DNA of 64,000 nt from Octopus vulgaris (taxonomy: Eukaryota). A program made the position numbers and the translations under genes. This document shows positions 12,750-57,795 of this stretch, piece by piece. Under the pieces are notes generated by a model. The model was not told the origin of the DNA and made no database searches. It worked only from the letters and a program-made list of their open reading frames with translations. The first letter of the stretch is position 1. Each line of letters begins with the position of its first letter. The stretch is from NCBI GenBank assembly GCA_951406725.2, contig OX597817.1:6448001-6512000 (forward strand). The letters are read 5' to 3'.

Positions 12750-14740
12750 TTTCGGTATAGCAATATTAAACCTTCCATGGAAATCATGTAAGCATACCTC
12801 ACGATTTTCAGCGTAGATCGCTCTGTTGTAAGTAATATGATCAAAATCTTGTTTGAAGGTAACGGTAGCCTCATAAGGTGTCAACACAATTTATACAACT
12901 CAAAATTCGAAAAGTATATCACTGAAAATTTCAATCTTTTTTTGTGATACCAGTGGACTTTGACTCAAGCAAAACTCTATAAATCACAAGTTAATTATAC
13001 ACAAACCTCATATGTTATTCATCTTCTGGACACATATATTCCAGCCCTTATCTATCGTCTTTCTTTGTTGACTCGAGCGTACTCTCAATTGAAATTTCTC
13101 TCCGCCAACAACTCACCTACTTTACCCAGGTATTCAGCTACAAATATACCTACATAATCGAGTTCGAGGATATCTCACTTCTCTACAGGTCCTAATATAT
13201 CTGCATGTTGAATCCTTTTTATGTTCTCTTTCAATCATAAACATATATTCAATGATAACTATTTCTGCACCGAGGTTAATTATATCTCTTCACTTCTCTC
13301 TGAAATAATGCACTCGTTGACTTCAGCGCTAACACTTTTTGATCGTCACGCTTATCCGTACGGAACCTACAAGTACATATGCTAAATCTTCAGCACCTCT
13401 GAATCATTTACACCAATTTCTTTTATCTCCTTTTGTCAGACCCAATCGATGGATGGAAGCACTCCGTCGGTTACGACGACGAGGGTTGCGATTGATCCGA
13501 TAAACGGAACAGCCTGCTTGTGAAATTAACGTGTAAGTGGCTGAGCACTCCACAGACACGTGTACCCTTAACGTAGTTCCCGGGGATATTGAGCGTGACA
13601 CAGAGAGTGACAAAGCCGGCCCTTTGAAATACAGGTATAACAGAAACAGGCAGTAAGAGTGAGAGAAAGTTGTGGTGAAAGAGTACAGCAGGGATCACCT
13701 CCATCCCCTGCCGGAGCCTCGTGGAGCTTTTAGGTGTTTTCGCTCAATAAACATTCACAACGCCCGGTCTGGAAATCGAAACCGCGATCCTATGACCGCG
13801 AGTCCGCTGCCCTAACCACTGGGCCATTGCGCCTCCACTACCCAATCGATACACAGTCGTTCATAATATTTTTGATGTCCACTTCCCTAACAAACACAAA
13901 CCCTACGAAATTCCCCTCATCTTTTCACCAATCGAATGTTAGGTAGCATTTGCAGCATATGCCCTTCACGCTTGACTTATCATGAGAGTCAGCTGGTTGA
14001 CTTGAAATCATTATTTTAGACAGGCATCTTTCGCCTACATCAGTGGCATACAGATAATTCACAGCAATAAACTCGAAGTTTTCAGAAAATTCTATAATCT
14101 TACAAGAACACTGTGGATCTCTCCACTCAAATATCCACCCTGGATGTAGCTAAACAGTATCAGAAAAAATCTGTAATTTTTCTTTAAAGCAATCAGTAAT
14201 ATAAAGTTTTGCAGTCTTCAATAAAGTTTGGATAATATTCACAATCGAGTGCTGTTCCCGCACCTGGATTTCTGCTACAGTTACACAGAGAGATTTCTAG
14301 AGAGCATCAAGAGAAAGGTTTGTTGACAGCTTCGTACAAAGTAACACGGCTACACTACAACATATAGTCCACAAACGTTCTTACGCCTTTCTGTGACTTT
14401 TCTATCCTTACTAAAATAAACTTCACCCATCGGATCTGCATGGTCCAGTGTACTTTCTACTTCCACACAGCACCTCCCTCTTTTACCTACTCTAACCACG
14501 TATATTCTCCACTCTTAAGCCAAGCTTTAAACTTACAACCTGTTCCCCTTCTCCCAGATAATCATCTCTGAATCTTTCCTGCATGTTTAGACTTGAAAAT
14601 TTTGAAAAGAATCGTAAACCACATTGACTTCAATAGTCCCATAATACCTGAAAATTTTATCTAAGGTCATGAGCTCGACATCTTTCTCCAGACCAACCTA
14701 CTGAAAATGGAAAGTGCTGGCTATTTTAACGCATCCTAAA
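12750..14740 (-). pseudogene. Old RTE-like LINE remnant interrupted by a SINE
   Basis: Minus-strand scraps resembling RTE ORF motifs (VYFSKDRKVTERRKNVCG; VEK*DILELD near the expected FxYLG). Heavily decayed. Confidence 0.35.
13451..13839 (-). mobile_element. tRNA-derived SINE family B, full length, with TSD
   Basis: Minus-strand head ggaggcgcaatggcccagtggttagggcagcggac...ggtttcgatttcc (A and B boxes). 11-bp TSD acccaatcgat at 13440-13450 and 13840-13850. Confidence 0.93.
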
Positions 14741-14965: not shown

Positions 14966-15353
14966 TTGGAAGCACTCCGTCAGTTACGACGACGAGGGTT
15001 CCGGTTGATCCGATCAACGGAACAGCCTGCTCGTGAAATTAACGTGTAAGTGGCTGAGCACTCCACAGACACGTGTACCCTTAACGTAGTTCTCGGGGAT
15101 ATTCAGCGTGACACAGAGAGTGAGTGACAAGGCCGGCCCTTTGAAGTACAGGTACAACAGAAACAGGAAGTAAGAGTGAGGGAAAGTTGTGGTGAAAGAG
15201 TACATCAGGGATCACCACCATCCCTGCCGGAGCCTCGTGGAGCTTTTAGGTGTTTTCGCTCAGTAAACACTCACAACGCCCGGTCTGGGAATCGAAACCG
15301 CGATCCTACGACCGCGAATCCGCTGCCCTAACCACTGGGCAATTGCGCCTCCT
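14966..15353 (-). mobile_element. SINE family B, full length, with TSD
   Basis: Near-identical to 13451-13839. 12-bp TSD catctctatatc at 14954-14965 and 15354-15365. Confidence 0.93.
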
Positions 15354-18512: not shown

Positions 18513-18960
18513 ACTCTTTACTCTTTTACTCTTTTACTTGTTTCAGTCATTTGACTGCGGCCATGCTGGAGCACCGCCTTTTAGTCGAGCAAATCGACCC
18601 CGGGACTTATTCTTTGTAACTCCAGTACTTAGTCTATCGGGTCTCTTTTACCGAACCGCTAGGTGACGGGGACGCAAACACACCAGCATCGGTTGTCAAG
18701 CAATGCTAGGGGGACAAACACAGACACACAAACACATACACACACATATATGTATATATATATATATACATATATACGACAGGCTTCGTTTAGTTTCCGT
18801 CTACCAAATCCACTCACAAGGCTTTGGTCGGGCCGGGGCTATAGCAGAAGACACTTGCCCAAGATGTCACGCAGTGGCACTGAACCCGGAACCATGAGGT
18901 TGGTTAGCAAGCTACTTACCACACAGCCACTCCTGCGCCTTCAAGCCACTCCTGCGCCTA
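18513..18960 (-). mobile_element. tRNA/CORE-type SINE family C, full length
   Basis: Minus-strand head aggcgcaggagtggctgtgtggtaagtagc..gggttcagtgcc, CORE-like cttgggcaagtgtctt, internal TA/CA microsatellite, tail gaaacaagtaaaagagtaaaagag. Confidence 0.92.
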
Positions 18961-26240: not shown

Positions 26241-26558
26241 AGAAGAGCGCCATAGATATCATGTGAAATTGGTTGAACGATATTTCGGCATTTAGCGTGC
26301 CTTCCACAGGTTCAAACATTAAATGTCAGTCTACTACAATTTCTTTTTTGTTAAGGTTATATAGGAGGACTGAGGTAACTCCTGCAGAAGTTATAGCGAA
26401 ATAGAGAAGGCACGCTATATGCCGAAATATCGTTGAACCAATTGCACATGATAACTATGGCACTCTTCTGGAGGAGTTACCTCAGTCCTATGTAATCTTA
26501 ACAAAGAGAAATTGAAGTAGACTCACATGTAAATTTTGAACCTGTGGAAGGCACGCTA
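26241..26558. mobile_element. Two inverted, circularly permuted ~141-145-bp monomers carrying a hammerhead motif
   Basis: 26241-26390 reads X-Y; 26406-26558 is the reverse-complement of Y-X. Each monomer is terminally redundant (agaag; gaaggcacgcta). Confidence 0.85.
26273..26315 (-). ncRNA. Minimal type I hammerhead motif (A6U core variant)
   Basis: Minus strand: ttgaac CTGTGGA a ggca cgctaaa tgcc GAAA ta TC gttcaa. 6-bp stem I, 4-bp stem II, palindromic ATAT in place of stem III. Confidence 0.65.
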
Positions 26559-26567
26559 GATAGAAAA

Positions 26568-26822
26568 ACAACTATCAAAGGCTTTCTTGTAGTCTATCCG
26601 TACCATACTCAAGTTCTTTTTGACCCGGCGATTCTCTACAATCATTTTACTTATGGATAATTGATCTTTGCACTCATATTAATTCCTTTTACAGCCTTTT
26701 TGAGCTTGTTGAAGGATTGACCTCTGTTCAAGGAAGACGTGTAGTCTATCTTGGCTGTGAGGATCTTGTAGGTGGTGTTGAGAAATGTTATTGGTCGGCT
26801 GTTGTTTGGATGTTTTGTGTCT
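26568..26822 (-). pseudogene. R4/Dong-like RT fragment (domains 1-3)
   Basis: DTKHPNNSRPITFLNTTYKILTA / RLHVFLEQRSILQQAQKGCKRN*YECKDQLSISKMIVEN..KKNLSMVRIDYKKAFDS. Confidence 0.9.
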
Positions 26823-26842
26823 TTATTGTTTGGTAGCTAGTA

Positions 26843-28835: not shown

Positions 28836-29323
28836 CAACACCGCATTTACTTCCACACATACACATACACACTCGCAGTCACAGACACAAAATGTCTTTG
28901 AGCATAGTCACGGTTGTCGCTCTCGAGAATTCCAATCAAATTTAAAAGTCGATTCAATGCTATGAATCATACACATTTGAAATACTATTCCGGGTTCTTA
29001 ATGTCATAATTCGTCTGAATCTTATAACGATAATCCTGCTCGTAATAAAACCTGTTTTATTTTGTGCTGAATTAATGTGCTGAATTTTCTGCTGAATTAA
29101 TTGTGTTGAATTCATCATCGTCATGGAACTGGTTACAAATTATATAGTGATAGATGGAATTACGATTTCTCAAATGAAACTGGGTAACAGTAATTTAAAT
29201 GTCTTTCACACAGCTGAGATAACTGAAAATGAAGATGCAGAGATACATGCAAGATATACTTATCATCTACGACAGATGTTCCCAACCACCGTGCCGTGGT
29301 CTGCAGGGCGTTTTTTGCTTTAA

Positions 29324-29547
29324 GTATTACCTATGTAATACCTGGTCGACGAGGTGACATGAATATGGGACATGGTGGTGGTGGTGGCGGCGGCGTTAGT
29401 GGTGGTGGTCAACGCTTCAACAATGACCGATCCCCAAACCAGTGGCCACAGATTGGCCCAGACATGTCGCAACGCGACAACCAGCCGTATAACAGATCCA
29501 TGGACGAATATCATGACATATGTATTATATGGATAACTAAATTATAA
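29324..29547 (+). other. Candidate coding exon or gene fragment, Gly/Asn/Gln-rich
   Basis: GC-richer island after an acceptor-like ttttttgctttaag. Reads IPGRRGDMNMGHGGGGGGGVSGGGQRFNNDRSPNQWPQIGPDMSQRDNQPYNRSMDEYHD. No convincing donor site or partner exons. Confidence 0.3.
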
Positions 29548-31335: not shown

Positions 31336-31718
31336 GGGTATGTATGTGTGTGTGTTAGGGAGAGAGATGGGGAGAGGTATAATATATATATAGATTGCTA
31401 TAGTTACAAAATTCCTATGGATGTACGGATATATATAATACATTATATTACAAGCACACAAAAAAAGAACACACACACAAACGCGCACGCACGCAAACAA
31501 ACATACGTTGCAATATCCGAAGAATGTGAAAAAAGTGTTCAATACATATTCTAAGGGATATATTTCTTTACATTAAAAGTGAGAGCTTATACCTGTCACA
31601 AAATAATAGGTACGATGTGCCTGTGTCCCTAAATATTCTTCATTGATACATTGTACATTTAAAAAAAATATTTAGTGAACATTCTGTGAACTTTGAATTT
31701 AACATGTATTTTCGAATA

Positions 31719-32518
31719 TGTCTTGCCAGCATATTGTTCTGATGTCCACTGAATTTTTCTTTAGAGAACATTCTTTTCTTTGTAGTTTGATCGTAGGTTA
31801 TCTACTTCTAGCGTATGACTGACCACATAGTGGTTTTTAGCCCTTATAAATATACACATGAATTAGAATTTTCTCTGATTTTTCAGATTTTTGTATGCCA
31901 GGCTACTGGTTTTAAATTGATATTAATTAAATTAATATTCAAGTTATCTCCATCATTATTTGAATGTTAAAATAAATATGTTCTCTAATAGGCAGCACTA
32001 ACTGCAGTAAATTATTTACTGCAGATTTTGTTTCCGGAATTTAGTGCGCCAGAACTTCGACATTTGAAATTAACCTCAATGTAATCGGTGGAACTAAGCA
32101 CGTGTCTGTTTTTATACGGAAAATTGGTGGTTAGTTTTACAAATTATATTGCTTGTGGAACGATCGTACTGACGAGTCCTACGAACGATTACGATTACGT
32201 AAGTGATTTATTCGTTAATAGGCGAAACCGCCGGTCAACGATTAATTCTTGTTCTTTATATAATTTTCATCTGTCTTGCCCGCATATTGTTCTGGTGTCC
32301 GCTGAATCTTTCTCTAGAGAACATTCTTTTCTTTGTAGTTTGATCGTTGGTGATCTACTTCTTGCATATGACTGACCACATAGTGGTTTTTACCTCTTAT
32401 AAATATACACATGTATTAGAATTTTCTCTGATTTTTCAGATTTTTGTATGCTAGGCTACTGGTTTTAAATTGATATTAATTAAATTAATATTCAATTTAT
32501 CTCCCTCATTATTTAAAT

Positions 32519-32521
<3 letters not shown>
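31719..32521 (+). mobile_element. Partial tandem repeat (553-bp period, ~1.45 units), retrozyme or pseudo-LTR-like
   Basis: 250-bp direct repeats at 31719-31968 and 32272-32521 with a hammerhead in the spacer; ends at (TA)n. Confidence 0.8.
32163..32242 (+). ncRNA. Type I hammerhead ribozyme motif with canonical core
   Basis: atcgt-a CTGACGA g-t-ccta[long stem-loop]tagg-c GAAA cc gcc gg TC a-acgat. All core nucleotides are present with a GUC triplet; the first stem I pair is an A.A mismatch. Confidence 0.8.
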
Positions 32522-32564
<43 letters not shown>

Positions 32565-32723
32565 ATTTTATTATTATTTTTTATTTCGTATATTTTTCAC
32601 TTGTTTATTGTTTTGGTTTTGTGTTGAGTTTGATCTGAGAACATAGACTTTTTGTGGAGAATGGCGATTAGACGTCTATATCTAGCATGTTGACTGTCCA
32701 CTTTTCGTGTTCAGTCCTTAATT

Positions 32724-32758
<35 letters not shown>

Positions 32759-32759
32759 T

Positions 32760-32945
32760 TATTCTTTCTTTTACTTGTTTCAGTGAGTTGACTGAGGCCA
32801 TGCTGGAGCACCCGTTTTGGGTTTTTAGTTGAATAATTTGAACACTGGACTTATTTTTATTCTTTCAATAATTTTTACCGAACCGGTGATAGGGTGGGGG
32901 TCAAACCAGACACGAAGACACATACACGCGTACATACACACACAC
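32760..32945 (-). mobile_element. SINE family C, diverged 3' part
   Basis: ttttacttgtttcagtgagttgactgaggccatgctggagcac aligns with the family C tail. Confidence 0.7.
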
Positions 32946-43111: not shown

Positions 43112-45242
43112 AAAATTCATAATACACTCACACTTACATTCACGCGTGCGCACATCCACCTGTTTATAGTACATTTCGGTATATATTTGTGAACTGTTGT
43201 GTATCAATATCCAATTGAACTTGCAAAATACACTGCAGTTGATGAAATAACCTTGGTGAAGAAACGTACTCAGAATGCAAACGATATAGATAGCATTTTA
43301 TGTTTATCATATGTATTTTTTCATAGTGCGTCCCTAGTACTCTATGTGATATCGTATTAGCGTGATAATTAAAATTCTGGAAGTATTTCATGTTTGACAT
43401 TAAGGACGGAGAAACATTTGCTGTTTGAGTTTTTCATTTTCTCTCCCATTCAGTTCTCTGATAAAAACACCCATCACATTGCATTCTCTGAATTGCGTTC
43501 GGGTTATCTTTTTGATATTATAGTCAATATATTCAGGATTTTATAATGGACTTGGAAATGTCAAAGATACCGATCATTCTAGCAATAAATCTTAATATAT
43601 TAATCACGATCCCCATGGAAAATGCTCGGCAAAAATTGTGTAAATATTTAATACACATGAGGCAACTTTATGAAAATAGTATTAAATCATGAAGAATAAT
43701 CATAACCAGAAAAATTGCTGGATCTCCAATCAGTTCGAAATGTATGCATAAAAACATTAATAAATTAATGGAAGCTCTGTTTTTTGGGATAGAATGTAAA
43801 GCCTAATATTATGAGCGCTTCCATATATAAATATATTAAATTTTTGTATATATATGCACACATAAATTCATATAGATACAAGATTGTCCGCTCAATGTGG
43901 GCGTTTTTCCCATTTATTTTAATGCCAAGTTTTTCAAGAATTTTGCCAAATCCCTCAACAAGTTATTCCGTTTCATTCTTCACGTATTGCCAAAGTTACA
44001 TTAATTTTTCACTGCTCAAAGAATTGATTTAGCTACCATTTTAGCACCACATCGTTACTTAACGAGATGCTCGAGCGATAATCTGAAGGCTTTACATCAG
44101 GAGGATATAGAGTGTGCAGTAGAACCTCCCAACGAAATGCTTGAAAAGCATTTTTGGTTAATTTCGCAATGTGGGAGCGAACGTTTTCATGTTGAAAAAA
44201 CATGCAACCACTCGAGTGTTCTGGAACTTATCCATCAAGTGATTGTGGCGGGTAATGATATTTTGGGAGCATTTCATCTGTTTGTACAATTTCCTAGTGG
44301 ATTAGCGTTCATTCATATGAATGAGATGGTTCAACTGATCCTCGTTAAACTGAACAGGTCGATCAGAACGTGGACTGCATTGGGTTCGAATGGCACTTAC
44401 AAGAAGCATGATATAACAGGTTTTGTGCAGCTCTACCAGTAATGTAAATTGATTTACAACTTTCCGCATGTTTATTTCAAAATGGCATATCAAGGAAAAT
44501 AAAAGGAAAGCAAATTTGTGTGTTTCTATTTTATGAGTTGAAAGCCAAGTTGCAGCAGAATAGAACATTGACCATTCAACTCTTGTCAAACATGCGCACC
44601 ATATTCAAATACAAAAAAGAAAAAGAGGGATAAGACACTATAAATGAGTGTAGCATGAAGAGAACGATAAAAATTACCCTCTTATGATTTGTGATTCCGC
44701 TATTCTTACGCAAATATTTCTTATGTCGTATTGCAGAAAGTAACGGAAAATGGATTCTATACAATGTATCATGATTTATGCTGAGACTGAGCCAAAGTAA
44801 TGCAATAATATAAAATATATTATGGTCATATATTTGATGGTCAGCAGGTGGAATTATGCTTTATTTCTTGAATTCTTACTAAACTGTCATAAGAGGAAAG
44901 AATTGTCACAAAAATGACACAATGGATCAAACAACTACAACGGTAACTTAAGGCTCTTGTGAATCATTCATGACAACATCCGTCCATATTTTTGAAAATG
45001 ACTATGTAAAGATTAAAGAAAGGAACCCTACAAAATTTCACATACACTCAGCCTATTTGGAAACTTATCTTCGAATAAATGACTGCTTGAATAATCGCAC
45101 AAACATCCTGCACACAAGAAGTCATAATCCATTTCGAGAAATCATTCCTTACAGGATTTCAGAATTCTCATCTACTGAAATAACTAGACTTATTTATTGT
45201 TGACAAAACTCTGCAGATTCTAATAGATATATTTTTGCCTAC

Positions 45243-57145: not shown

Positions 57146-57404
57146 GTGGAACCCTTCTTGAACTCTGTATATCATGAACGGTTTATCACGTCACATTTCG
57201 GATGCTATGCGTTTCAACATTAAAATCAATAGATCGTTACAAAATACGTAGTAACAGACACAGAAATCTATGGGGCTGCAAGATGTAATTGAAAATGTCG
57301 TTTATGTCACATATATGTGGAATATACATCATTTACACAAAAAGATCATGTTACTACCTTTCTACGCGAAATGACATTGTCCCTAAATTAATATGCAACG
57401 CAAT

Positions 57405-57795
57405 GTGGAGGCGCAATGGCCCAGTGGTTAGGGCGGACTCGCGGTCATAGGATCGTGGTTTCGATTCCCAGACCGGGCGTTGTGAGTGTTTATTGAGCGA
57501 AAACACCTAAAAGCTCCACGAGGCTCCTGCAGGGGTTGGTGGTGATCCCTGCTGTACTCTTTCGCCTCAACTTTCTCTCACTCCACTCTTACTTCCTGTT
57601 TCTGTTGTACCTGTATTTCAAGGGGCCGGCCTTGTCACTCTCTGTGTCACGCTGAATATCCCCGAGAACTACGTTAAGGGTGCACGTGTCTGTGGAGTGC
57701 TCAGCCACTTACACGTTAATTTCACGAGCAGGCTGTTCCGTTGATTCGGATCAACCGGAACACTCGTCGTCGTAACCGACGGAGTGCTAGAGAGG
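57405..57795 (+). mobile_element. SINE family B, full length, with TSD
   Basis: gtggaggcgcaatggcccagtggttaggg...; 12-bp TSD atgcaacgcaat at 57393-57404 and 57796-57807. Confidence 0.93.

Follow-up and report, generated by a model that had tools for sequence, protein, structure and literature searches.

Two groups of retroelements provide the closest comparisons for the octopus repeat described here. Animal non-LTR retrozymes (PMC7229834; bioRxiv 10.64898/2026.07.22.740005) resemble it in being non-coding, low in GC, arranged head to tail, multi-copy and free of LTR hallmarks, with one type I hammerhead motif. They match pseudo-LTRs found in Penelope-like elements, and the 2026 preprint, which sampled 31 vertebrates, three insects and a coral, equates animal retrozymes with non-autonomous Penelope-type elements (bioRxiv 10.64898/2026.07.22.740005). 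Partial tandems and inverted junctions occur among Penelope-like elements, and their insertions in microsatellites often lack a target duplication (PMC8557442). Within their Hydra clade, the target is (TA)n in 26 of 27 rows of the supplement to PMC8557442, and stems III of the hammerheads are palindromic and 9-10 nt long, some having 3 bp and a 3-nt loop; one of these elements comes from Octopus bimaculoides (PMC8557442). A weak palindromic helix III acting as a dimer is the rule for such motifs (PMC4209133). In vitro, AT-rich DNA is nicked by a Penelope-like enzyme, whose reverse transcription begins downstream of the hammerhead at a fixed internal position (PMC11167929). What hammerheads do for Penelope-like elements has yet to be settled (PMC8557442, PMC11167929).

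For cephalopods, 235 hammerhead-1 loci are counted but not analysed in a squid genome paper (PMC6962438). We found no description of a cephalopod retrozyme or hammerhead element in the open literature. Here we describe one, possibly of a family already catalogued as an unclassified repeat, at 31716-32521 of a window, the 64,000-nt stretch of Octopus vulgaris DNA whose positions are used throughout. Our best reading is that it represents a new member, a multi-copy 553-bp non-coding repeat, of a known kind, the animal retrozyme or non-autonomous Penelope-like element. It would extend these elements to octopus.

Repeat architecture and the hammerhead motif

Self-comparison of the window returned a gapless repeat pair, 31716-31979 and 32269-32532, 92% alike at a spacing of 553. 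Similarity between the copies stops at 31968 and 32521, and the copies proper (31716-31968 and 32269-32521, both on the plus strand) measure 253 bp each, with 17 differences in 253 nt. Copy 1 leads into the spacer and copy 2 into (TA)19 at 32522-32559. The layout amounts to 1.45 units: a full 553-nt unit on the plus strand at 31969-32521 (33% GC, no ORF found), of which copy 2 is the 3' part, is preceded by a 5'-truncated, pseudo-LTR-like partial unit, copy 1. The latter begins 33-36 nt past the position equivalent to the hammerhead cleavage site, and the DNA upstream of it is unique (depth 23). The element is 806 nt long, its 3' end at 32521 lies 285 nt past the predicted cut, and no target-site duplication is present at the locus. 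Direct repeats of about 250 bp around a 303-bp spacer, and a unit ending in (TA)n, had been proposed in an earlier note on this DNA; both proposals stand, with a spacer of 303 bp. A perfect 10-bp hairpin occupies 32002-32024 of the spacer. An A/T-rich hairpin near the 3' end (32466-32499, plus strand) sits in the deepest-covered part of the family and may be a candidate reverse-transcriptase recognition site.

Repeats of ~250 bp around ~300 bp would fit the sizes of a miniature LTR element, TRIM-like or a plant-type LTR retrozyme with the 253-bp repeats as LTRs, and the excess of repeat over spacer reported below could then be solo LTRs. We consider this extremely improbable. Reading the sequence on either strand, we found no TG...CA ends and no primer-binding site or purine tract adjoining the repeats; a target duplication is likewise missing, and family copies end in (TA)n. 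Moreover, plant LTR retrozymes have type III motifs within the LTRs, unlike the hammerhead here, a type I motif in the spacer. The non-autonomous Chlamys elements such as MRC1 (PMC8557442) were once taken for LTR elements and resemble the octopus repeat in being short, non-coding and head-to-tail with pseudo-LTRs. They differ in that they belong to green algae, mostly lack a hammerhead, and have a partner known by 3' similarity.

The hammerhead motif spans 32157-32254 on the plus strand, as delimited by Rfam alignment and a descriptor, with predicted cleavage after C32236. Its core comprises CUGACGA (32169-32175), GAAA (32224-32227) and the cleavage triplet GUC ending at 32236; 32162-32168 pairs with 32237-32243 in stem I, which has a distal extension. 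All defining features of type I are present: CUGANGA, GAAA, NUH, G10.1-C11.1, three helices and an open helix I. The Rfam model RF00163 matches 32163-32242 with 27.5 bits (E 3.7e-4), short of the gathering score of 34, which nothing passes in an Rfam scan of the whole window. This alignment is that of a standard type I motif in which a 35-nt insert interrupts loop 2 and stem II is one base short; the core and the loop 2 flanks agree with the Rfam type I consensus. A type I descriptor that includes the stems matches the window once; after block shuffling, 2 of 100 windows contained any match. These coordinates and the alignment bear out the earlier description of a canonical core with a 3-bp stem III and a 48-nt stem II. 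This variant escapes the curated Rfam threshold and would probably also escape descriptors built around a short stem II. A pattern scan of viral contigs gave no matches. Sixteen pattern matches in metagenome contigs (46-69% GC, no likeness beyond the pattern) were dismissed as chance.

Stem II is extended (32176-32223, plus strand): it measures 48 nt here and about 46 nt in the majority of family contigs, carries a bulge of one nucleotide close to the base and has a GNRA-type apical loop. The 35-nt hairpin insert and bulge distinguish the motif from those of animal non-LTR retrozymes, and the unit is longer than in coral, mussel or axolotl. A bulge in helix II occurs in Drosophila virilis Penelope as well, and long loop-2 inserts are listed for Selaginella PLE-X in the supplement of PMC8557442, so the long stem is unusual, not unique.

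Stem III is a 9-nt near-palindrome in the fold model (32227-32235, plus strand). Alone it gives no fold, and its duplex with a second copy is predicted at -10.2 kcal/mol; stem III is thus predicted to form only between two hammerheads, and a one-hammerhead copy should therefore release no circle. The isolated 111-nt hammerhead region shows no folding advantage over shuffles (z -1.2). When the core is constrained to stay open, the hammerhead fold costs 6.5-8.3 kcal/mol relative to the free ensemble, whether the letters are those of this copy or of the family majority, in a model that excludes tertiary contacts and dimers; activity of a monomer is therefore not predicted. Having one hammerhead and a mismatch next to the cut, this locus is probably inactive.

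A multi-copy family in public sequencing contigs

Contigs from four of 24 listed public runs (three organism labels, four studies) were matched to 31510-32268 at 80% likeness. In run X1, which may be the window's own source and hence not independent, the unique flank is a single contig of depth 23 with no differences. Median summed depth was about 11,800 for the spacer and 145,000 for the repeat, or ~500 and ~6,000 times the unique-flank depth of 23; these values are orders of magnitude and not copy numbers. The junction of repeat and spacer is bridged by 5 of the 32 pieces listed (4,415 further pieces exist), with at least 31 nt on each side. These bridging pieces come from three runs, differ from the locus by 7-18 letters and are paralogous. 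The case that would have undone the proposal, a unique local duplication with a hammerhead unlinked to it elsewhere, thus fails: spacer and hammerhead are multi-copy, and their junction recurs in paralogous contigs. The hammerhead is tied to the repeat family-wide. This multi-copy, partial-tandem family also supports the earlier suggestion of about 1.45 turns of a 553-nt monomer inserted as a retrozyme or pseudo-LTR.

The long stem II is a trait of the family and not a local duplication, which is ruled out by the pieces spanning it (5 of the 32 listed, with 2-8 gaps); none of them lacks the hairpin, and most family contigs are 2 nt shorter than the locus near 32189. We also considered whether the A missing from the 3' strand of stem II reflects decay. 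No insertion restoring it is listed in family contigs, and the bulge is therefore a family trait.

The (TA)n 3' end is likewise common to other copies. Among the 24 of 527 loose-end rows listed, ends behind 31965 read (AT)n in 12 contigs of X1 and 10 contigs of X4, and on this basis (TA)19 is likely the target site. Thirteen contig joints, each resting on a single contig, were recorded: four lead from spacer to repeat start (one per run), four join opposite strands, and five are skips.

In all four runs, the 3' part without the hammerhead is 11-14 times deeper than the spacer. Depth rises sharply near 31745-31770, and the first 26 nt past the cut are not enriched; edge effects blur this boundary. 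The excess would be explained by cleavage-limited cDNA, or else by a sister family that is larger and has diverged in its 5' half. A family holding whole units in the hundreds and far more 3' pieces would reveal, from an assembly alone, any accumulation of insertion 5' ends just past the cleavage site.

Further loose ends, behind 32109-32112 and 31938-31942, indicate at least one sister subfamily with another segment upstream of the hammerhead and another 3' tail. Long contigs in X1 (817 nt) and X4 (652 nt) match the unit over only ~130 nt and continue for 500-650 nt in other sequence; they could be either flanks of truncated copies or a lead to an autonomous partner.

Among the 40 of 72 variant rows listed, none of the nine positions in 32155-32238 hits a core nucleotide. 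Stem variants keep pairing, with U.G to C-G at 32177, A-U to G.U at 32184, and U-A to U.G at 32238. At 32237 (plus strand), the family contigs identify a private change of this locus that produces an A.A mismatch with 32168. T makes up 95, 95, 93 and 100% of depth here in the four runs and restores the pair with A32168, as expected from the earlier guess that the mismatch is post-insertion decay. The locus itself is an ordinary decayed copy.

Copy history and proposed origin

A single template would account for three non-majority letters common to both copies, at 31805, 31818 and 31822. Copy 2 is nearer the family majority: at the 12 listed sites where the X1 majority differs from copy 1, it carries the majority letter at nine. 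Private changes number at least nine in copy 1 and at most eight in copy 2, and the copies differ at 31795, which is polymorphic in the family. This excess of changes in copy 1, together with the difference at 31795, leaves room for two templates. The locus could have formed in two events, either an older solo 3' fragment with a later, adjoining one-unit insertion, or a local duplication of the 3' part. Solo 3' parts do seem far commoner than whole units, nine of the 12 listed sites are private to copy 1, and (TA)n abounds at the spot, which also contains another possible relative of the repeat. However, repeat and spacer meet seamlessly and without (TA)n, a junction also present in paralogous contigs from three runs, and the three shared non-majority letters also count against separate origins. 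We regard two events as distinctly improbable.

The other possible relative lies at 32583-32720 on the plus strand and is followed by its own (TA)n. A diverged relative had been suggested near this position, and the suggestion holds in part: the segment aligns locally, with scores of 53 against copy 1 (0 of 2000 shuffles) and 50 against copy 2 (3 of 2000), but lacks window-wide significance (nhmmer E 0.91; absent from blastn). From this weak local alignment, an old, diverged relative of the repeat is plausible.

We think it probable that the element is a non-autonomous Penelope-like element, or non-LTR retrozyme, whose 1.45 units were inserted at (TA)n from a linear, multi-unit template. Head-to-tail copies would be transcribed from the plus strand, and two hammerheads in this RNA would pair through their near-palindromic stems III and trim it. 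A Penelope-like enzyme, the reverse transcriptase and endonuclease of an autonomous element, would then nick (TA)n and begin reverse transcription at a fixed point, 285 nt past the cleavage site. In the present copy, the start site would correspond to 32521, and the cDNA would run for 806 nt, covering a whole unit and a portion of the following one, so that a pseudo-LTR remained. Several features expected of a non-autonomous Penelope-like element are found here, namely a partial tandem with a pseudo-LTR, a sense hammerhead near the 3' end, and a (TA)n 3' end (at the locus and, among the loose ends listed, in two of four runs). So are several of those of non-LTR retrozymes: head-to-tail, non-coding organization, GC below 50%, a type I hammerhead, multiple copies, and no LTR, primer-binding site or polypurine tract.

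Endonuclease-bearing Penelope-like elements, above all those of the Hydra clade (PMC8557442, PMC4209133), are alike in their partial tandems, sense hammerhead near the 3' end and (TA)n 3' junction. The likeness includes the 9-nt near-palindromic stem III, inverted junctions in some copies and, possibly, a retained intron. Unlike Penelope-like elements that bear an endonuclease, the octopus element has no reading frame. Motif search and comparison by eye gave no match between its sequence and the octopus Hydra or Naiad consensus as published, and its 285-nt tail past the cut is longer than that of Hydra-1_Obim. Five short motifs of the element have no occurrence in the supplement to PMC8557442.

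Searches for an autonomous partner with Pfam in six frames gave only a DUF match (E 0.069), and protein searches were empty. By the same Pfam and protein searches, a frame with reverse transcriptase and GIY-YIG endonuclease is absent from the element. One minus-strand frame in the repeat contains words that we took to be reminiscent of a GIY-YIG endonuclease. This idea was rejected for want of support: Pfam returned nothing, and a word-index search confirmed none of three candidates. A full HMMER search of a neighbouring frame gave no matches. A plus-strand frame of 51 codons in copy 1 was also set aside (none of six candidates; the family majority has a stop).

A classical retrozyme cycle would place the element in the same family and differs from our preferred reading only in its circular template. 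Double cleavage would yield a 553-nt monomer, a host ligase would close the circle, and a borrowed reverse transcriptase would copy it for more than one turn. Such more-than-unit cDNA is expected from circles (PMC7229834, PMC4209133). Against shuffles, the monomer's fold is by far the more stable (z -5.6, 0/100), and its circular fold is 64% paired, partly from two local A/T hairpins that contribute to the fold score; low GC and the lack of LTR hallmarks also recall animal retrozymes. On the other hand, no contig with two hammerheads, and hence no such array, was seen among those listed, the contigs of other copies being short. The 11-14-fold deeper 3' part looks more like truncated, target-primed copies than satellite arrays. 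Hammerhead cleavage is not required for in vitro insertion by a Penelope-like enzyme, according to PMC11167929. The 553-nt length exceeds the 150-450 bp given in PMC7229834, yet falls inside the 51-972 bp of bioRxiv 10.64898/2026.07.22.740005. Overall, we judge a circular template unlikely; both the circular and the linear readings place the element among non-autonomous Penelope-type elements. Given one hammerhead at this locus, no 553-nt monomer is excised there, and a test for circles therefore applies to the family. Under the two-hammerhead rule of the 2026 preprint, a locus with 1.45 units does not count as 'active'.

Candidate splice sites and the surrounding window

The apical loop of stem II contains GTAAGT (32199-32204, plus strand), which may be a candidate 5' splice site or a plain GNRA tetraloop. 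A pyrimidine tract with CAG at 32425-32439 (plus strand) provides a candidate 3' splice site, giving a 241-nt intron from 32199. Shuffling the unit reproduces donor and acceptor in this order 10 times in 2000, in a test chosen after the words had been seen. In 23-50% of family depth, the G of the donor is replaced by A; the site lies in a CpG, and the CpG at 32117-32118 shows 0-32%. At the acceptor, TTCAG is retained in relatives and preceded by different letters (consensus agreement 0.6-0.8, among the 24 of 527 rows listed). None of the 13 contig joints is a spliced joint. In run X9, which is RNA only by guess, the ratio of repeat to spacer is as in the DNA runs, and its contigs are uninformative on splicing or expression.

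An intron is kept at the pseudo-LTR in Penelope and Chlamys-3, and that of Penelope abuts the hammerhead (PMC4209133 for the latter). The 3' end of the Penelope intron meets helix I, in contrast to the octopus element, in which the candidate donor is in the stem II loop. We found no literature on a hammerhead with a splice site in stem II of a retrotransposon. It is conceivable, and in our view quite unlikely, that this loop acts as a switch between splicing of the 241-nt intron and cleavage, with cleavage setting the 5' limit of the cDNA. If so, splicing would remove the 3' half of the hammerhead and its cleavage site, giving one RNA alternative fates. Cleavage-limited cDNA would then explain both the ~12-fold excess of 3' pieces and the start of the 1.45-mer ~33 nt past the cut, and would offer a first genomic read-out of the role of a hammerhead in Penelope-type elements.

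The window is AT-rich (28-41% GC), with many microsatellites and no real long frames, and contains no tRNA. Pfam searches of ten short frames confirmed no host exon near the element; a glycine-rich plus-strand frame of 104 codons at 29233-29547 might be one and has no usable match. Broken minus-strand frames at 26420-26840, between (TAA)n-type runs, gave nothing in Pfam and PDB searches and contain words that we take to recall an R4/Dong-like non-LTR reverse transcriptase. Similarly, broken minus-strand frames at 44005-44604 are without a Pfam match, and their words presumably recall the C-terminus of a Tc1/mariner transposase. A dispersed repeat of 385 bp is present in three copies that are 92-94% alike (13454-13838, 14967-15352 and 57403-57788). 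A 172-codon plus-strand frame at 48712-49230 matches the Pif1 helicase 2B domain (E 5e-5, just below the curated cut-off), and from this sequence match it is likely a Helitron remnant. Closer to the element, a SINE-like repeat at 32756-32920 starts right after (TA)n and has at least six copies, near 18520, 38170, 54390, 57060 and 61040 among other places; we presume it to be typical of octopus genomes. A frame within it matches a hypothetical protein of Argonauta hians (75% identity, 35% query coverage, E 3.6e-10, one match among 8000 scored).
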